DNA of 13,613 bases, taken from IMG/VR virus record IMGVR_UViG_2778261693_000009; one strand, given 5' to 3'. This DNA is from a virus. Lineage: Duplodnaviria; Heunggongvirae; Uroviricota; Caudoviricetes. The notes under the pieces were generated by a model. The model was not told the DNA's origin. It saw only the letters and a program-made list of their open reading frames with translations, and searched no databases. The translations under genes were made by a program, and so were the position numbers. Shown piece after piece: positions 3,556 to 13,613 of this stretch; position 1 is the stretch's first letter; every line of letters begins with the position of its first letter.

Positions 3556-3771
3556 ATGACATTAAAAACTTATCCTATCACTGGACATGCCCGCCCACGA
3601 GCTACTGCTGACTTTTTGCAAATAAGTACGGTTACTCTCTGGCGCTGGGAAAAGAACAATCCTGAATTTCCCAAATCTATACGCATTTCAAAACGGGTAT
3701 CTGTTTACGATGCACAAGAAATTAGGCAGTGGGTTAAAGCTCAATCAGCAGGATTGGAGGAAGTAGTGTAA
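3556..3771 (+). CDS. alpA: AlpA-family (prophage CP4-57 regulator-like) small DNA-binding regulator/excisionase-type protein
   Basis: 71-aa protein containing FLQISTVTLWRWEKNNPEFPKSIRISKRVSVYDAQEIRQWV, which fits the AlpA/Xis-type winged-helix pattern. Located between int and the replication module as in P4-like elements. Confidence 0.75.
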   Translation: MTLKTYPITGHARPRATADFLQISTVTLWRWEKNNPEFPKSIRISKRVSVYDAQEIRQWVKAQSAGLEEVV

Positions 3772-4131: not shown

Positions 4132-4308
4132 ATGGCTAAACAGAAGTGTACCTGGTTATTTGCGGCGATCAACCGCAGTCAACGTAATGCCCGTCCGGTG
4201 ATGTTAAGGATCACCGCAGATAACGAGCGATCAGCGCGGCGCAGACTTGCCCCGGACTATGTACTGAGCTTTGCCGGGCGCATTCCCTGCGGAGGTGAAC
4301 ATGCGTAA
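4132..4308 (+). CDS. Small protein resembling the Icd-like (host cell division inhibitor) family of P4-like elements; assignment from memory
   Basis: ATG at 4132 preceded by GAGG at 4121..4124. 58-aa product MAKQKCTWLFAAINRSQRNARPVMLRITADNERSARRRLAPDYVLSFAGRIP. Its 3' end overlaps the next ORF by 8 nt. Confidence 0.45.
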   Translation: MAKQKCTWLFAAINRSQRNARPVMLRITADNERSARRRLAPDYVLSFAGRIPCGGEHA

Positions 4309-4691: not shown

Positions 4692-4976
4692 ATGAATATT
4701 TCAAACGGGCACAACGGTGCTCAGGGCCAGACTTTGCCTGAAAAACACAATACCGGTGCTTTTGCCTATGGGTTGTCAGAGGACGGTTTCGGAAAGCTGA
4801 CCCGCGCAAGAAATGCCTGCGACATGCTCCAGCTTCTCTTTTCTGAATACCCGTCTCAGGCCGGAGCACTGGACGCAGGCTGTGCGCCTGGTGTCGCCGC
4901 GCTGATGGAGTACCTGCGGGCAGATTTGACGGATATTGCACACAGCTGCGCACTGATTGAAGGAGGTGCCAGATGA
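4692..4976 (+). CDS. Hypothetical protein (94 aa), satellite early operon
   Basis: ATG at 4692 with SD-like ACGGAG upstream; its stop overlaps the next start (ATGA). Identity unknown. Confidence 0.5.
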   Translation: MNISNGHNGAQGQTLPEKHNTGAFAYGLSEDGFGKLTRARNACDMLQLLFSEYPSQAGALDAGCAPGVAALMEYLRADLTDIAHSCALIEGGAR

Positions 4977-5356
4977 ACCAGCCGCAGGTTTCCATTTTCC
5001 CGGCAGAAATGACCACCGCGCTTTACCGGCGGGCTATTGCTTCAGCATGGCGGCAGAAAATGCTGAACGAAACTGGCAATGATCAGTATGGTCCGCACAG
5101 CCTGACGGTGGAGCGTATTGAAATGGCCATTGCGCTGCATATCGAGTGCGCACTGATTAACGAGTACGGCGAAGCACAGGGCGCCGCTGCCGCGCTGGCA
5201 CTGCTGACTGACATGCTGGAGCCGTCACTGCTGACCGCGCCGCCGGTACTGACCGCGCGCGGTTGTGAAGTAATGGCGGAGATGTACCGCACGCTTCCGG
5301 CGGCCTTTGATGTCTGCTGCAGTACCGGTGTGACGTTGTATCAGGGGGAAGTATGA
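4973..5356 (+). CDS. Hypothetical protein (127 aa), translationally coupled to the primase gene
   Basis: ATG at 4973 with SD GGAGG; its stop overlaps the primase start (ATGA at 5353..5356). Confidence 0.5.
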   Translation: MNQPQVSIFPAEMTTALYRRAIASAWRQKMLNETGNDQYGPHSLTVERIEMAIALHIECALINEYGEAQGAAAALALLTDMLEPSLLTAPPVLTARGCEVMAEMYRTLPAAFDVCCSTGVTLYQGEV

Positions 5357-8025
5357 CAATACAGACGGTTACGCAGATTTCAGCCGCCGCGCGGGGGAAA
5401 TGGCCCGTTATTCTGCAGATGCTGCGTATTGATGTACCTGAAAACGGCAGGCACGGTCCCTGCCCGAAATGTGGGGGCAAGGATCGTTTTCGCCTTGATG
5501 ACCTTGACGGGCGCGGGACGTGGATCTGCAGCCAGTGTGGCAATGGTGACGGTCTGGATCTGGTTAAGCTCGTAACCGGTTACAGCGTCAGAAAGGCTGC
5601 GCAGGAGGTGGCGCAGGTGCTTAATGTGCCGGATGTGCAGGAACTGCCTGTTAAGCCTGCCAGACAAAAAGCCCCTAAACGCGACATGGGTCTTACCGTG
5701 GCGGCGCTGATGAAAGAGAGCCACACGGGAGAAAGCGCCTATCTGACAGGAAAAGGGTTCGCCGGATACCCGGCCTCTCTGACCGGAAGCGTGCAGCATA
5801 TCAGCGGTAAGGATTTTCCTGCCGGTTCCCTGCTGTTACCACTCACGACCAACACCGGAGCCGTGACCGGTGCACAGCTTATCGCCCCGACGGGTGAAAA
5901 AAGCATACTGCCCGGCAGCACGATGAAAGGCGCGTTTGTGTCGCTCAGCCCGTTACCGTCTGAACCACCGGTACAGGTGGTGATTACCGAAGGTTACGCT
6001 ACGGCGCTGACGGTAAGCCAGCTCACTGCCGGATGCGTAGTGGCTGCCATATCTGCGGGCAACCTGCCCAATGTGGCGCAGTCGCTGCGGGCACGCTGGC
6101 CTGAGGTAAAAATTATCATCGCCGGTGATAACGATTTTCAGGATGGGGGGGAGAATCCCGGCAGAGCCTTTGCTGAACGGGCGGCAAAAGTTGTTGGCGG
6201 CTGGATGACGCTGCCACCAGGAGAGATTAAGGCTGACTGGAATGACTTTCATCGGGAGCACGGTATTACCCGTGCCCGTGAAGCCTTTCGCAACGGTCTG
6301 GTACTGTGCGGGGAAGGCCGCACGCAACTGCCGCACGGGTTCCGTCTTACCCAGGAATATCTCTGGTATGAAAAGCAGGTACAGCGCAACGGTGAGACGG
6401 AGATCCAGAACGTCAAAATATGCAGCCCGCTGCGCGTGACGGCAATCACCTGCGATGCCGATGGCGGTAACTTCGGACGACTGCTGGAATGGGAAGATAC
6501 GTGGGGTGAGCGTCGCCGCTGGGCGATGCCGATGGAAATGCTGAGCGGCAGTGGTGAGGAACTGCGCCGGGTACTGCTGGTTAACGGGCTGTCTTATATC
6601 AGCACTACCGGTGAGGCACGCGCACGCCTGATGGAATATATCTCACTGTGTAAACCGGAACGCCGCGTGACCTGCGTCAGCCGTACTGGCTGGCATGGTC
6701 AGGTTTACGTCCTGCAGGATGAGGTCAGCGGTGAAGGTGCAGAGGGTGTCATTCTCCAGACCACTTCCGTGCAGGGGCGTGATTTCCGCGTGTCGGGCAC
6801 AACAGAGGAATGGCGGGAGAACGTATCCCGCTACTGTACCGGCAACTCTCGCGTGGCATTTGCTGTCAGCCTGGCCTTTGCTGCACCACTGTTACGGCTG
6901 GTTGGTATGGACGGCGGCGGCTACCACCTCAAAGGGGAATCGACAGACGGTAAGACCACCACCATGAAAGCGGCAACCTCCGTCTGCGGCGGGCCTGACT
7001 ACTGGCAGACATGGCGGGCCACCGGCAACGCGCTGGAGGGATGCGCCAGCCGCCGCAACGATGCCGCCATGATGCTTGATGAGATCCGGGAAGTTGACGG
7101 ACGCGAGGCAGGCAATATCGCCTACATGCTGGCAAACGGTCAGGGCAAGGGCCGTGCCGGTACGGACGGTGAGCTGCGTACCCGTAAGCAGTGGCGCCTG
7201 TTGTTCTTTTCAACTGGCGAGTTGTCTCTGACCGAACATGCGGCAAAGGCCGGTGAGCGTACTTTTGCCGGGATGGAAGTCAGGATGATCCAGATCCCCA
7301 GCGATTCCGGGAAATTTGGCGTTTTTGAGGAGCTGCACGGCTTCGACAGCGGCAAGGCTCTGGCAGAGCATCTTGAATGGGCCACGTCCTGCTACTACGG
7401 TTCGCCGTTCCGGGAGTGGCTAAAAGCACTGACCGCTGATCTTAACGGACTAACGGCACAGGCAAAATCGCTGATGAAGGAATATGCTGCCGCCCTGACT
7501 CCGAAAGATGCAGGCAACCAGGTGGGCCGGGCTGTGAATCGCTTTGCACTGGTGGCGATGGCGGGTGAACTGGCAACCCGTCTGGGTATCACCGGCTGGC
7601 CTGAGGGTGAAGCACTGCGGGCAACCCGCGTCTGCCTGAACGCATGGCTGAAAGATCGCGGGCACACCGCCAATCAGGAAGATATTGCCGCACTGGAGCA
7701 GGTTCGCAGTTTCTTTACCGCGAATCAGTACAGCCGCTTTGCAGACTGGTATGACGAGCGCAACCGCCCCGGCAATATGGTGGGCTGGCGCAGGGTGGAG
7801 AAAGGCAGTACCGCGCAGGGCACGGAAGCTGTCACTACGTTCTATGTCATGCCGTCCGGCTGGAAAGAAATCTGCAGGGGATTTGACCCGCGCAAGGTGG
7901 CGCGTCTGTGCGCAGATCGTGGATACCTGCTGCCCTCCACTGATGGCAAACTCCAGACAACCATTCGCCCGCCAGAGATGAATCCCCGCAGGCTCTATGT
8001 CTTCAACAGCGAGGTGCCGGGTTAA
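5353..8025 (+). CDS. P4 alpha-like bifunctional DNA primase-helicase (zinc ribbon, TOPRIM, D5/SF3-type P-loop NTPase)
   Basis: 890-aa ORF with SD GGGGGAAG. Zinc ribbon C37-P-K-C40 ... C59-S-Q-C62. TOPRIM-like ITEGY (nt about 5984..6001) and AGDNDF (nt about 6121..6138). Walker A GESTDGKT (nt about 6934..6960) and Walker B MMLDEI (nt about 7066..7083). Confidence 0.9.
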   Translation: MTIQTVTQISAAARGKWPVILQMLRIDVPENGRHGPCPKCGGKDRFRLDDLDGRGTWICSQCGNGDGLDLVKLVTGYSVRKAAQEVAQVLNVPDVQELPVKPARQKAPKRDMGLTVAALMKESHTGESAYLTGKGFAGYPASLTGSVQHISGKDFPAGSLLLPLTTNTGAVTGAQLIAPTGEKSILPGSTMKGAFVSLSPLPSEPPVQVVITEGYATALTVSQLTAGCVVAAISAGNLPNVAQSLRARWPEVKIIIAGDNDFQDGGENPGRAFAERAAKVVGGWMTLPPGEIKADWNDFHREHGITRAREAFRNGLVLCGEGRTQLPHGFRLTQEYLWYEKQVQRNGETEIQNVKICSPLRVTAITCDADGGNFGRLLEWEDTWGERRRWAMPMEMLSGSGEELRRVLLVNGLSYISTTGEARARLMEYISLCKPERRVTCVSRTGWHGQVYVLQDEVSGEGAEGVILQTTSVQGRDFRVSGTTEEWRENVSRYCTGNSRVAFAVSLAFAAPLLRLVGMDGGGYHLKGESTDGKTTTMKAATSVCGGPDYWQTWRATGNALEGCASRRNDAAMMLDEIREVDGREAGNIAYMLANGQGKGRAGTDGELRTRKQWRLLFFSTGELSLTEHAAKAGERTFAGMEVRMIQIPSDSGKFGVFEELHGFDSGKALAEHLEWATSCYYGSPFREWLKALTADLNGLTAQAKSLMKEYAAALTPKDAGNQVGRAVNRFALVAMAGELATRLGITGWPEGEALRATRVCLNAWLKDRGHTANQEDIAALEQVRSFFTANQYSRFADWYDERNRPGNMVGWRRVEKGSTAQGTEAVTTFYVMPSGWKEICRGFDPRKVARLCADRGYLLPSTDGKLQTTIRPPEMNPRRLYVFNSEVPG

Positions 8026-8052
8026 GGCTTTGCGTGAGTCTTATTTATTAAG

Positions 8053-8247
8053 GGTAACAGGTGAAACAGGTGAAACAACCGTATTTTACAGGGCTGAACC
8101 TGTTCCACCTTCTGAAATAGTGAGGTGGAACAGATGTAACGCCAGCCAATCCGCTGTTCCACCTTGTTACCCGCGATGTTCCACCGGTGCAGTGTATATA
8201 AGTGCTTTATAAAACAAAGCTGTAACACATGTTTCACCTGTTCCACC
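8053..8247. repeat. Iteron cluster; candidate replication origin (P4 ori/crr-like) bound by the alpha protein
   Basis: Nine-mer TGTT(C/T)CACC in both orientations: GGTGAAACA at 8060..8068 and 8069..8077 (tandem, period 9, preceded by degenerate GGTAACA); TGTTCCACC at 8101..8109, 8155..8163, 8177..8185, 8239..8247; inverse GGTGGAACA at 8124..8132; TGTTTCACC at 8230..8238. An AT-rich stretch at 8191..8226 lies between clusters. Non-coding and immediately downstream of the primase-helicase gene. Confidence 0.7.
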
Positions 8248-8335
8248 GCATCAGGGACATAAAGCAGACTGAAACTGAGGGCATTTTTATCTGGCTGGCT
8301 TTCATAGCCACGTCTGAATAACCGCAAGCGCCCGT

Positions 8336-8391
8336 TGTGCCAGCCACCACACACTGAGTACCGATAGTGTGCTTGTGTCAGCCACGACACA
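8336..8391 (+). promoter_or_regulatory. Candidate Ogr/Delta-dependent late promoter (two TGT-N12-ACA dyads) upstream of the sid-like gene
   Basis: TGT(8336..8338)-N12-ACA(8351..8353) and TGT(8374..8376)-N12-ACA(8389..8391), both within 90 bp upstream of the ATG at 8426. The first dyad sits about 55 bp upstream of a plausible transcription start. Confidence 0.35.
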
Positions 8392-8425
8392 ATTGACGTA
8401 ACGAACCAACCCGACAGGAGAAGTC

Positions 8426-9169
8426 ATGAACAACACCGCAGTGAATAACAACCTTTCCACTTTTCCGGCTGTAACGCAGCGGGCACTGGAAACCATGAAC
8501 ACAGCCAGAAACGCATGGCTTGAAGCACGTCGTCAGCAGAAAGCGGCAGCGGATAATATTGCGACAATCCGCCAGCGTCGCGCTGAGATGGAAGCCACGA
8601 CGAACACACTGAATGAGGAGTGGCGCACGCTGTTTCGTGAAAGTCAGGGCGTGGTTTCAAAGGAAATGAAAAAACTGCGCACGGAAATTGCGCTGGGACG
8701 AGAAACGCTTGAGGATTTTGATGAGCTGCTGGCGGCTCAGGAAAGCGAAAATGCACTTTTGCCGCAGAAAGCTGCGGAATTAGCCGGAAAGTATATCCAC
8801 GCGCATAACATTCTTGTGGATATTCGCGCAAAACAAATCTGGGAAGATTTTATGCAATCGCATGGAAAAGCGCTTATTCAGACGCTGAGCCTGCTTAAAT
8901 CCACAATGGGCCGGGAAGCCAGTGCCGTTGTGGGTGTGGTGAATTCAGTTAATGACCCGGACACAGTGCTGAAAGACTTTATTCATAAACATATCACCAG
9001 ACCGGCTCTGGCTAACGATGCGATGCCTGAACAGGACCCGGTGTTTAAACTGGCGGGAATTGCCCCGGATTATGCGGCGCGTCTGGATTTCAGTAATCAA
9101 CTCTCTCCGGCAGCTATGCATAAAATTAAGGTTCGTCAGGAACTTGCTGAGAAGGAGAAAGCAGTATGA
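8426..9169 (+). CDS. Sid-like protein (candidate capsid size-determination scaffold); assignment by size, position and predicted helical character
   Basis: 247 aa (P4 Sid is about 244 aa). SD AGGAG at 8416..8420. Charged, helix-prone sequence rich in A/E/R/K/Q. First gene of a three-gene operon ending in an Ogr/Delta-like gene. Confidence 0.4.
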   Translation: MNNTAVNNNLSTFPAVTQRALETMNTARNAWLEARRQQKAAADNIATIRQRRAEMEATTNTLNEEWRTLFRESQGVVSKEMKKLRTEIALGRETLEDFDELLAAQESENALLPQKAAELAGKYIHAHNILVDIRAKQIWEDFMQSHGKALIQTLSLLKSTMGREASAVVGVVNSVNDPDTVLKDFIHKHITRPALANDAMPEQDPVFKLAGIAPDYAARLDFSNQLSPAAMHKIKVRQELAEKEKAV

Positions 9170-9717
9170 CGGCCCGAGGCACGCCTGACCAGGCACTTAC
9201 CAGTTTTCGGAATGCCCGTATTCTGTGGGCCGGACATAGTGAGAGCCGAAAAGCCGTTGAACAACAGATAGCATCTCTCCTCGCTGCCACAGAAAAACCA
9301 GCAGATTATGCCCGACAGCTCGAATTACTGCGGGAACGTCTGGATGTGCTGAAATGGCAAATTAACTGTGCTGCGCGCGAATGCATTTACTCGCAGCATT
9401 TACTGATGGAAGCCTGCACAGAAGCCGCTCTCAGCAATTTTATGCAGGCGAATGGGGCAGCCCTGACATCTGCACTGGCTCCGTTCCTGAAGGGGCGCGG
9501 GGGGGTTGACGTTGCGTCCCGTATATTACGCAGTGCTCTGGTTCGCCAGCTGACAATAACACCGCCTGAAATTGCCGGGGATTATCGTGAGATCCTGGAT
9601 GAATCCGGTTTGATGCCTGACCCCGGGATGATTCGTGATTGCCAGGGCTCTTACACCCCGGCACAACATCTGCGTTTTCAGCAACGCCTGAATGACATTA
9701 ACGATATACAGGAGTGA
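9166..9717 (+). CDS. Psu-like protein (polarity suppression / capsid decoration family); from size and remembered motifs
   Basis: 183 aa (P4 Psu is about 190 aa). Start overlaps the upstream stop (ATGA). Contains KWQINCAARECIY and FMQANGAALTSALAP, which resemble my recollection of P4 Psu. Shares the local motif FMQxxGxAL with the upstream 247-aa protein. Confidence 0.45.
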   Translation: MTARGTPDQALTSFRNARILWAGHSESRKAVEQQIASLLAATEKPADYARQLELLRERLDVLKWQINCAARECIYSQHLLMEACTEAALSNFMQANGAALTSALAPFLKGRGGVDVASRILRSALVRQLTITPPEIAGDYREILDESGLMPDPGMIRDCQGSYTPAQHLRFQQRLNDINDIQE

Positions 9718-9792
9718 TATTAATGGCACTTAAATGTCCGGAATGCGGTACAGTTGCACACGCCAGAACAGCAGCCTATGAAGCTCCGTCAG

Positions 9793-9796
9793 TTAA
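9793..9796. repeat. IS5 target-site duplication, left copy (TTAA)
   Basis: TTAA immediately precedes the left IS5 inverted repeat. Confidence 0.8.
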
Positions 9797-10991
<1,195 letters not shown>

Positions 10992-11621: not shown

Positions 11622-13613
11622 ATGGCCATTCAAAAAAAACAAACAAAAAATTCTGAAAGAAGTATTAAAAGCCAGTTAGAAAAACTTACGGCTGAAAAAG
11701 CCATTTCCGAATATATTTGGAATGCTTTTGATGCTGAAGCCACAAATATTAATATTACAGTTATCCCAAATGGTTTAAGTGGGATATCTTCAATAGAAAT
11801 TATTGATGATGGAACTGGCATCGATTTTAATGAAGTCGATGAAACTTTCGGGCAGTTTTTAGATTCCAAGAAGAAAGCAAAACGAACGCCTGTCACAAGA
11901 GGACATAAAGGTAAGGGGCGGTTTTCATTCTGTAAATTCGCTGATAAAGCCGAATGGACTAGCTGGCGTAATGGAGAGAAATTTACGCTAACTATAGTTT
12001 CATCACATCTAAATGAATATGAGCATTCAGATTTATCCATGTGCTCTCATAAAAATTCTGGAACTAAGGTGGTCTTTAATCCTGTAACAATTACTGAAGA
12101 TTATTTTAATTCAATAGTTATACCCTATTTGCAGAACGATATATCTTGGCTGTTGGTGGCCAAACCAAAATTAAAATTAAAAATAAACGGTCAATCTATT
12201 AGCCCAATAGGATATGCTTCAACTTCAAATAATATTGAATTTGGAGAGGTCGATTTTAATTCAAAAACAGTTATATGGTCTAGTAAACCTGTAGTAGAAA
12301 AATCATATATATATTATTTAAATAATCAAGGTGATATTGTTTACAAAGAGTTTTCTGAGATGAACAAAAAAGGATTTGATTGTTCATCCTATGTCACATC
12401 AAGTTGGTTTGATGATTTTTCTGAATCAAACGACTTGTTTAATGAATCGAAAAACAGTGTTGACTCAGATATTTTTAAATACATTAGCCTACATGTTAAA
12501 GGTAATTTAAGGGAAGAGTATAGAAAATATAAAAATAATGCAGCAGATCAACTCATTCAAAACTATTTAAATGAGGGTGTGTTTCCAGAATATAAAGGTG
12601 AGAATAGAATGCTCAATGAATTTAAAAGGAATCAACTCATTGAAACTATAAAGATAATTTATGAGGCCGAACCTCAAATTTTCTCCACACTAAACAAGAA
12701 ACAAAAAAAAATCTTAATTAAACTATTAGATAGAATTGTTGAAACCAATAATTTATCCAGTCTCTTTGACATTTTTGAAGGTATAGTTTCCCTATCCGAA
12801 GATGAGGTTGATAAACTTTCATCTGTAATAAAAAGAAGTTCACTTTCTAATATTACGAGGACTTTGTCATTTATTAATGATAGACTGGATGTTATTGATT
12901 ATTTTAAAAAAATACTATATGAGAAAAAGAAAGAATCATATGAAGTAAAGCACATTCAAAAGAGCATAGAAAATAATTTATGGCTTTTTGGAGAGCAATA
13001 CACTCTAGTTGCATCAGAAGATGATAAGTTTGATAAAGCTCTTAGAAAGTATCTGGAGAAGACTAAAGGTTTTAACGAAGCACATTATAATAAGTATAGT
13101 GTACAGCATCCAGATAAAAATAAAGAAATGGATATATTTGCAGCACAAAAAATAAAGCGTTACACTGAAAATAATGAAGAATATTTTCATTGCATTGTGA
13201 TTGAATTAAAGAAACCAAGTATAAAACTCGGTGATGAAGAACTCGCACAAATAAAGTTATATAAAAATATAATATCTGCGACTGATGAATTTAAAGACGA
13301 TAATACAAAATGGGATTTTATTTTAGTGGGAAATGATATATCTAATAGCAATATCACTGCTGCAAATTTATCATCAGATCTAGAAACGAATAAAATACAT
13401 GGTGAGTTTGGCTTGGTTCAAAAAACAACAAATATGAAAATTTACGTCAAAACGTGGAAGCAAATTTTAAATGAGTATGATCTTAGATATAACGACCTGA
13501 TCGATAAGCTTAAGTTGAAAGAGTTAGAAATTGCAGAAGATATGGGGCCTGATGAACTCACGGCAAAAATTTTAGAAAAAACGGCAAGACTTCCGACTTC
13601 GATACAGGCTTAG
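11622..13613 (+). CDS. GHKL-family (Bergerat-fold) ATPase with a C-terminal PD-(D/E)xK-like putative nuclease region; AT-rich cargo gene and candidate anti-phage factor
   Basis: 663-aa complete ORF whose stop codon is the last three bases of the window. Weak SD GGGA 5 nt upstream. N-terminal motifs: E30-x3-N34-x2-D37-A38 (EYIWNAFDA), D62-D-G64-T-G66 (G1 box), G94-x2-G97-x-G99-R-F (G2-like). C-terminal motifs: D504 (EMDIF) ... E528-L-K530 (IVIELKK) ... Q543. Very AT-rich by eye (about 30 percent GC), unlike the satellite core. Confidence 0.75.
   Translation: MAIQKKQTKNSERSIKSQLEKLTAEKAISEYIWNAFDAEATNINITVIPNGLSGISSIEIIDDGTGIDFNEVDETFGQFLDSKKKAKRTPVTRGHKGKGRFSFCKFADKAEWTSWRNGEKFTLTIVSSHLNEYEHSDLSMCSHKNSGTKVVFNPVTITEDYFNSIVIPYLQNDISWLLVAKPKLKLKINGQSISPIGYASTSNNIEFGEVDFNSKTVIWSSKPVVEKSYIYYLNNQGDIVYKEFSEMNKKGFDCSSYVTSSWFDDFSESNDLFNESKNSVDSDIFKYISLHVKGNLREEYRKYKNNAADQLIQNYLNEGVFPEYKGENRMLNEFKRNQLIETIKIIYEAEPQIFSTLNKKQKKILIKLLDRIVETNNLSSLFDIFEGIVSLSEDEVDKLSSVIKRSSLSNITRTLSFINDRLDVIDYFKKILYEKKKESYEVKHIQKSIENNLWLFGEQYTLVASEDDKFDKALRKYLEKTKGFNEAHYNKYSVQHPDKNKEMDIFAAQKIKRYTENNEEYFHCIVIELKKPSIKLGDEELAQIKLYKNIISATDEFKDDNTKWDFILVGNDISNSNITAANLSSDLETNKIHGEFGLVQKTTNMKIYVKTWKQILNEYDLRYNDLIDKLKLKELEIAEDMGPDELTAKILEKTARLPTSIQA

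Follow-up and report, generated by a model that had tools for sequence, protein, structure and literature searches.

The 13,613-nucleotide stretch of DNA analyzed here (the window) carries a tight cluster of short repeats immediately after a gene for a large primase-helicase, which raises the question of whether these repeats are the site at which the element starts its replication and, if so, what kind of origin they form. The original prediction, drawn from the letters of the sequence, took the cluster to be a likely satellite replication origin served by the adjacent gene, and likened the gene, the repeats and their location to alpha, ori and crr of P4.

Genomic setting of the repeat array

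The element is a P4-like satellite integrated at the E. coli tRNA-Arg(CCT) and adjoining yfdC. Its gene content is that of the family (an integrase, an AlpA/Vis-like HTH protein, an alpha-like primase, Sid, Psu and a Delta-like protein on an island of roughly 10 kb at a tRNA), with gene calls that rest on Pfam and PHROG matches, include Delta/Ogr only as a 63 amino acid fragment and do not include Epsilon. The features surrounding the array are:

1009-1081, tRNA-Arg(CCT)
1207-2541, integrase
3556-3771, Vis/AlpA-like HTH protein
4973-5356, DUF5375 gene
5353-8025, plus strand, primase-helicase of 890 amino acids with Zn-ribbon, TOPRIM and DUF927 domains and a predicted C-terminal helical bundle and winged helix; putative iteron-reading initiator
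8336-8397, plus strand, Psid-like late promoter found by pattern search, outside the proposed origin and forming the right-hand limit of its region
8426-9169, plus strand, sid-like gene (247 amino acids; Pfam Psu family, PHROG 6165), the first gene downstream of the array
9166-9717, Psu
9714-9905, Ogr/Delta-like fragment of 63 amino acids, next to the IS element
9943-10959, minus strand, IS element encoding a 338 amino acid DDE_Tnp_1/DUF772 transposase, directly after the truncated Ogr/Delta-like ORF
11622-13613, large ORF running off the end of the window, with HATPase_c_3 (GHKL ATPase) and HSDR_N_2 domains

The last of these ORFs is probably anti-phage defence cargo in the variable hotspot of the satellite; at the same position, E. 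coli FAM21845 carries two different hypothetical genes. Published studies place P4-like satellites, with their defence hotspots, in about one third of Enterobacterales genomes (PMC8628076; PMC9122126).

The Psid-like region has two TGT-N12-ACA boxes (8336-8353 and 8374-8391), 38 bp apart, together with a CACAATTGAC motif; it aligns with the P4 Psid region TGTGTCAGGGCTGGCACA...CGTCACAATT and is conserved between the iteron types A and B described below. We take TGT-N12-ACA to be the Ogr/Delta activator site of P2 and P4. Since the satellite's own Ogr/Delta-like gene is reduced to a 63 amino acid fragment, activation of the late promoter may depend on a helper phage. In E. coli FAM21845 (L002, 15824-16095) the corresponding gene has its intact length and is frameshifted.

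The 400 bp from the primase-helicase stop codon to the start of the sid-like gene are non-coding and contain the array, and RefSeq annotates no gene over it in a 99.3% identical E. coli copy. Two mechanically called ORFs that overlap it, 7997-8212 on the plus strand and 8022-8390 on the minus strand, were rejected as coding because a 1-nt indel among near-identical relatives would frameshift both and because RefSeq has no gene there. This intergenic region is present at 90% identity or more in 337 of 5,426 complete E. coli genomes. An Rfam scan of the whole window returned the tRNA only, and a promoter and terminator scan of 7900-8500 found nothing.

The setting also bears on whether the repeats could be integration, packaging or host-factor sites, that is, integrase arm sites, cos, or sites for DnaA or IHF. 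P4 does have short arm-type repeats near attP, and the 9-mer loosely resembles a DnaA box (two mismatches to TTWTNCACA). Against this, 6-7 kb separate the array from the integrase and the tRNA-Arg attachment site, the window has no P4 cos 19-mer even with up to three mismatches allowed, no DnaA box, IHF consensus or GATC occurs in 8000-8450, and the motif drifts away from the DnaA-like form in relatives. We therefore consider this explanation very unlikely.

The array comprises twelve sites of a 9-bp iteron

An exact search for TGTTYCACC over both strands of the whole window returned eight matches, all of them inside 8060-8247 (8060, 8069 and 8124 on the minus strand; 8101, 8155, 8177, 8230 and 8239 on the plus strand), and no exact copy elsewhere. 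Chance would provide 0.23 matches per window; in 200 dinucleotide-preserving shuffles of the window the highest count was three. Copies with one mismatch outside the array (n = 7) are at chance level, and some 600 kb of DNA from other loci contain the 9-mer only as scattered singles, homologous arrays excepted. The expectation of at least eight copies in both orientations within about 200 bp of non-coding DNA was thus borne out, with an enrichment that is local and a density that is not repeated elsewhere in the window.

In-place alignment with relatives added degenerate sites at 8051, 8133, 8165 and 8221, so that the array comprises twelve sites in 8051-8247. These are given below with the strand on which each reads as GGTG(G/A)AACA, together with the elements associated with them:

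8032-8049, plus strand, conserved box GCGTGAGTCTTATTTATT with core RTCTTAT, directly 5' of the first iteron triplet
8051-8059, plus strand, site 1, a degenerate copy (AGGGTAACA) that keeps the 9-bp register of sites 2 and 3; GGGTAACA is invariant in type A and type B arrays
8060-8068, plus strand, site 2, GGTGAAACA, by pattern match and alignment
8069-8077, plus strand, site 3, GGTGAAACA (GGTGGAACA in close relatives), by pattern match and alignment
8101-8109, minus strand, site 4, TGTTCCACC, inverted, by pattern match and alignment
8124-8132, plus strand, site 5, GGTGGAACA, by pattern match and alignment
8133-8141, plus strand, site 6, degenerate here (GATGTAACG, where relatives have GGTGGAACG), by alignment
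8155-8163, minus strand, site 7, TGTTCCACC, by pattern match and alignment
8165-8172, minus strand, site 8, a degenerate copy (TGTTACCC) shared unchanged by types A and B
8177-8185, minus strand, site 9, TGTTCCACC, by pattern match and alignment
8186-8220, no strand, AT-rich gap (34% GC), candidate DNA-unwinding element; sequence poorly conserved, still AT-rich in type B
8221-8229, minus strand, site 10, a degenerate copy (TGTAACACA) that keeps the 9-bp register of sites 11 and 12; types A and B share TGTAACAC without change
8230-8238, minus strand, site 11, TGTTTCACC, by pattern match and alignment
8239-8247, minus strand, site 12, TGTTCCACC, by pattern match and alignment

The first site begins 26 bp past the primase-helicase stop codon (8025). 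Where a tandem pair with 9-bp period had been noticed, there are two (8060/8069 and 8230/8239), each extended to a triplet by a degenerate third copy (8051-8059 and 8221-8229, respectively), plus an additional pair at 8124/8133. The blocks follow one another as three direct sites, one inverted, two direct, three inverted, the AT-rich gap and three inverted, and the outer blocks form an imperfect inverted repeat (8056-8088 with 8210-8242). The AT-rich stretch reported between clusters is real but modest: its 35 bp have 34% GC, compared with 47.6% for the window.

The RTCTTAT box occupies the same place in nearly all related loci irrespective of their iteron type and is invariant in the alignment of types A and B; within it, GAGTCTTAT (8036-8044) is a type-independent stretch just ahead of the first iteron. 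Being common to nearly all loci whatever their iterons, the box appears to be a constant element of the origin region, perhaps as a site for priming, for loading or for a host factor.

The array accompanies the primase-helicase gene across Enterobacterales

We identified 998 homologues of the primase-helicase at E ≤ 1e-10. Related loci were recovered via the protein alone, with one genome per species, which gave 55 places in Enterobacterales, and arrays were detected de novo by counting k-mers over the first 450 bp past each stop codon. A repeat array was found in nearly all of the recovered loci (about 50), and in nearly all intact cases it begins 25-40 bp past the stop codon. These approximately 50 loci share a scaffold in which three tandem sites at 9-bp period precede a single inverted one, a tandem pair and then inverted blocks, and which includes an AT-rich gap; the offsets are kept at about +28/+37/+46, -77, +101/+110, -128/-137 and -192/-201/-210 (the sign giving the orientation). 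The 9-mer itself varies with the protein subfamily, in at least eight types that include the following:

Type A, GGTGGAACA: the window and proteins at least 95% identical to its own; also a shorter Serratia protein (about 700 amino acids) that aligns only from residue 326
Type B, GGTGTAACA: includes proteins 91% identical to that of the window; one example is Pantoea L006
Type C, GGGGTAACA: loci L010 and L011
Type D, CTGGTAACA or GTGGTAACA: many loci
Type E, GTGGATACA: locus L020
Type F, GTGGTTACA: locus L018
Type G, TGTAGTACA or TGTACTACA: loci L033, L034 and L043

In Klebsiella spallanzanii (L039, 7650-8000) and Scandinavium (L047, 7600-8000), an integrase-like gene is inserted right after the primase-helicase gene, and the array (10-13 copies of GTGGGAACA) has moved about 1.1 kb downstream. 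Other E. coli satellites with DUF927 proteins have the same design with further iteron types, and a member of this primase-helicase family is present in 917 of the 5,426 complete E. coli genomes.

With the primase gene on one side and the Psid-like promoter about 90 bp away on the other, and no intrinsic terminator predicted in between, the array could instead be a set of operators that control the late operon sid-psu, or could block transcription coming from the primase gene; the protein bound there would be the primase-helicase or another regulator of the satellite, and the sites would not serve replication. Three observations make this unlikely in our view: the array follows the primase-helicase gene whatever comes next (sid, ogr/delta, a ComEC-family gene or an integrase-like gene), the TGT-N12-ACA activator boxes are separate from it and unchanged across iteron types, and no sigma-70-like promoter lies inside it. 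Initiator binding at the array may have a regulatory side-effect.

More distantly related is a TOPRIM-DUF927 protein (33% identity) encoded on an E. coli plasmid record, circular and 12,152 bp long (L063, NZ_CP148430.1); after the stop codon of its gene (6515-6650) there are three tandem GTTGGTTCA copies, a 43-bp AT-rich gap and three inverted copies. This element is PICI-like, with an integrase, an Icd-like protein, PerC and the TOPRIM-DUF927 protein. A second cluster of the same repeat lies about 1.8 kb away (approximately 8250-8700), an arrangement that recalls P4 ori plus crr.

That second cluster, and the fact that P4 requires both ori and a crr placed directly after alpha, are what speak for the array being solely an auxiliary cis element (a crr-like enhancer or a "handcuffing" copy-number site), with initiation elsewhere in the element. 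We give this little credence. The 9-mer forms no further cluster in the window, which takes in attL, int, the primase gene, sid, psu and beyond, nor in the 4 kb on either side in type A relatives, and SaPI/PICI replicons with this type of helicase use a single 3' array as their origin.

In E. coli SE15 (L058, NC_013654.1, 2505-12878), the same argW site is filled by another satellite, oriented the other way round; this satellite encodes a P2-family major capsid protein, an Icd-like protein, an 895 amino acid DUF927 protein, ogr/delta and sce7725/7726, and has type D iterons (CTGGTAACA/GAGGTAACA). Three genomes have two members of this family each, in every case with unlike iteron types: Pantoea stewartii NZ_CP046558.1 (L004 and L046, types A and B), Pantoea leporis (L013 and L052, types B and D) and Enterobacter intestinihominis (L042 and L012, types A and D). 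These co-residences fit selection for compatible replicons, in a sample of three that is statistically not significant.

Iterons are conserved and co-vary with the protein

We aligned in place the intergenic regions of eight type A and five type B loci. Invariant columns make up 86 of 105 iteron positions (82%) versus 25 of 99 spacer positions (25%; Fisher p = 1.6e-16), and polymorphism within each type is also depleted in the iterons. Between types A and B the spacers have diverged freely, while seven of the nine full (non-generic) sites are set apart by one diagnostic base; the remaining two, at 8060 and 8230, vary at other bases. This pattern indicates strong purifying selection on the iteron bases, and their conservation coupled with a one-base type switch is, at the level of sequence comparison, the signature of binding sites co-evolving with their reader.

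The degeneracy of several window sites (8051, 8133, 8165 and 8221) might be read as that of a chance or decaying cluster without function. Such a reading is effectively refuted by the shuffles, 0 of 200 of which reach eight copies, by the far greater conservation of iterons than of spacers, and by a scaffold that is kept across genera.

Three "generic" sites, at 8051-8059 (GGGTAACA), 8165-8172 (TGTTACCC) and 8221-8228 (TGTAACAC), are identical between type A and type B arrays. They resemble iterons of other types, and the arrays of other subfamilies also combine two repeat variants. Such sites may be of low affinity, may be relics, or may serve a second reader. With full and generic degenerate sites mixed in this way, the true specificity may be looser than the one-base switch implies.

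On the protein side, changes of iteron type are accompanied by substitutions in residues 846-871: in two close pairs whose iteron types differ, 6 of 16 (L030 and L018) and 4 of 30 (L023 and L025) substitutions fall in this segment, versus 0 of 177 in same-type Xenorhabdus pairs, these statistics being correlative and ignoring phylogeny. In addition, K866 versus R866 splits types A, B and C from types D to G without exception in the sequences examined, short forms included. Type A and type B proteins (91% identity) have most of their differences in the N-terminal 200 residues, not in the winged helix. A single-residue code for A versus B was sought and failed, as positions 861, 870 and 878 differ in the 91% identical type B proteins and not in other type B proteins.

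The primase-helicase has a predicted C-terminal winged helix

The N-terminal primase of the window protein is 38% identical to P4 alpha over residues 1-316, and BLASTP gives no match past residue 316. The helicase is of the DUF927 type, in contrast to the D5_N/DUF5906/Pox_D5 helicase of P4 alpha; its Walker A motif (GKT, residues 533-535) lies in an invariant segment, GESTDGKTTT. The C-terminal region of P4 alpha is its origin-binding part; the C-terminal profile of the window protein has no similarity to it detectable by hhalign (probability 0.1%), and a search of PDB sequences with this profile returned noise only.

We modelled residues 600-890 with AlphaFold2, at moderate overall confidence (mean pLDDT 71, rising to about 90 in the last 90 residues; pTM 0.45). 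The model has a bundle of helices and, after it, a winged helix, with helices at 834-841 and 846-855 and wing strands at 869-871 and 879-884. Foldseek matched this model to SaPIbov1 Rep (8tch, E = 8e-6) and Cch (5dgk, E = 2.5e-4), and the P4 alpha C-terminal domain is not among the fold matches listed. The helicase and the predicted C-terminal winged helix resemble those of SaPIbov1 Rep and Cch, and the model agrees with an initiator that combines a self-loading ring helicase with a C-terminal winged-helix reader of iterons.

A probable single replication origin next to its putative initiator gene

Taking into account that the array travels with the gene in about 50 loci, that the scaffold is kept while the 9-mer co-varies with the protein, and that the iterons are under apparent purifying selection, we infer that the array at 8051-8247 and the box at 8032-8049 are, very probably, the vegetative replication origin of this P4-like satellite, served by the winged helix of the adjacent primase-helicase. 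The comparative evidence of linkage, scaffold, co-variation and selection thereby supports the central claim of the original prediction.

We propose that the 890 amino acid protein would act as a self-loading initiator-helicase with a fused primase. Its C-terminal winged helix would bind the 9-bp iterons GGTG(G/A)AACA, arranged as tandem blocks of two or three sites at 9-bp spacing and in opposing orientations; hexamers assembled on these blocks would then melt the AT-rich gap at 8186-8220, the likely unwinding element. The DUF927 ring helicase would load itself without a separate loader, and the N-terminal Zn-ribbon/TOPRIM domain would prime synthesis for extension by a host polymerase.

The putative origin follows an already known design and had gone without annotation. 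Origins of the DUF927 primase-helicase family are not annotated in the database records examined, a full-text literature search for the iteron strings returned unrelated primer matches only, and a survey of P4-like satellites makes no mention of origins or iterons (PMC8628076).

More tentatively, and with somewhat less than even confidence, the family could be a natural series of mutually orthogonal origin-initiator pairs, in which a fixed 12-site scaffold plus RTCTTAT box is retargeted by one or two bases per iteron with matching changes in the wing and recognition helix (e.g., K866R), driven by incompatibility of co-resident satellites. If true, this would provide a readable recognition code for a DUF927/MCM-like self-loading helicase, and would suggest that the bipartite ori/crr of P4 derives from a single array lying both 3' of alpha and 5' of Psid. 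Closely related initiator/iteron pairs, some with proteins 90% identical and iterons mostly one diagnostic base apart, could be used to dissect origin recognition and replicon incompatibility between co-resident satellites, and to build orthogonal P4-based delivery vectors.

Comparison with known replication systems

The likeness to P4 goes beyond the homologous N-terminal primase. A DUF5375 gene before the primase gene, sid/psu and the Psid-like promoter place the element in the same satellite family, and the iterons are those of P4 with one inserted base. In the P4 record (NC_001609), crr lies directly after alpha, and about 170 bp separate sid from the type 1 repeats of ori (TGTTCACC) upstream of it. 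The array of the window follows P4 ori1 in block order (three tandem, one inverted, two tandem) and in its distance from the late promoter, with the last iteron 88 bp before the first TGT-N12-ACA box compared with about 80 bp in P4, and follows crr in lying immediately 3' of the primase gene. It is therefore upstream of Psid, as ori1 is, and directly after the primase gene, as crr is, both at once. The genes here are co-directional, whereas the P4 arrangement is divergent.

Three features that define the P4 alpha-ori-crr system are missing here: an array built of the octamer, a helicase and origin-binding domain of the alpha type, and cis sites in two parts. The octamer TGTTCACC has one copy in the window, at 4294, outside the array and at chance level. 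The protein has a DUF927 helicase and a C-terminal domain that is not Pox_D5. Where P4 has two clusters about 4.5 kb apart, the window has only one, and so do type A relatives when 4 kb on either side are included. The analogies first drawn with P4 thus stand in part. The description of the gene as alpha-like applies to its N-terminal primase, and not to its helicase or C-terminal domain. The kinship of the repeats with P4 ori and crr comes down to sequences one inserted base apart; since the C-terminal domain of the putative reader has no detectable sequence similarity to that of P4 alpha, the resemblance of the 9-mer to TGTTCACC has no homologous reader behind it. The location does mirror crr, but it mirrors ori1 equally.

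The Rep proteins of SaPIs are self-loading helicases whose C-terminal winged helix binds 6-12 iterons located immediately downstream of rep, in opposite orientations around an AT-rich centre, and in SaPI5 a primase is fused to Rep (PMC9371898). Our comparison covers Pri, Rep and ori of SaPI1, SaPI5 and SaPIbov1 and the SCCmec Cch helicase. The window protein shares with these the DUF927/MCM-like self-loading helicase type, as judged by sequence and by the fold matches to 8tch and 5dgk, and the predicted C-terminal winged helix, together with a primase fused as in SaPI5. The putative origin is immediately 3' of the gene, here and in about 45 related loci, with short iterons in sets of opposite orientation flanking a gap that is only moderately AT-rich. 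Iterons also appear to be specific to the cognate initiator allele, as the at least eight types track protein subfamilies, a correlative observation. The differences are that the host here is Gram-negative and the element carries a P4-like (Sid/Psu) hijacking module, that the primase is of the P4-alpha Zn-ribbon/TOPRIM type, that the iterons are 9 bp long in 9-bp tandem register instead of penta- or hexanucleotides, and that sequence identity is only 9-14% over the aligned C-terminal region.

In Gram-negative PICIs the origin lies 3' of pri-rep and has two sets of iterons, one on either side of an AT-rich region, and that of EcCICFT073 was found to be functional by plasmid maintenance (PMC6092414). 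EcCICFT073 has a similar int, alpA and icd-like backbone, with capsid genes in place of sid/psu. We located it in CFT073: its Pri-Rep has D5_N/DUF5906/Pox_D5 domains, the P4-alpha helicase type, without TOPRIM, and its iterons are GGTAGAC/TCTACC, so that this system is an analogue of that of the window and not a homologue.

The design also recalls the iteron plasmids pPS10, R6K and F (initiators RepA, pi and RepE) in having initiator sites beside an AT-rich unwinding element and an adjacent initiator gene. These plasmids have iterons of 17-22 bp in direct orientation, to which a winged-helix dimer that is not a helicase binds, and their origins depend on DnaA boxes and on host DnaB/DnaC. In contrast, the sites of the window are 9 bp long and in both orientations, 8000-8450 has no DnaA box, and the putative initiator is itself a helicase-primase.

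By analogy, the closest mechanistic match is the pri-rep-ori design of SaPIs and PICIs, rather than P4, and the best reading of the locus is a single-site origin of this kind inside a P4-like satellite. This branch of the P4-like satellites would then replicate by means of a SaPI/PICI-style self-loading helicase and a single 3' origin, and not through the textbook alpha-ori-crr system.
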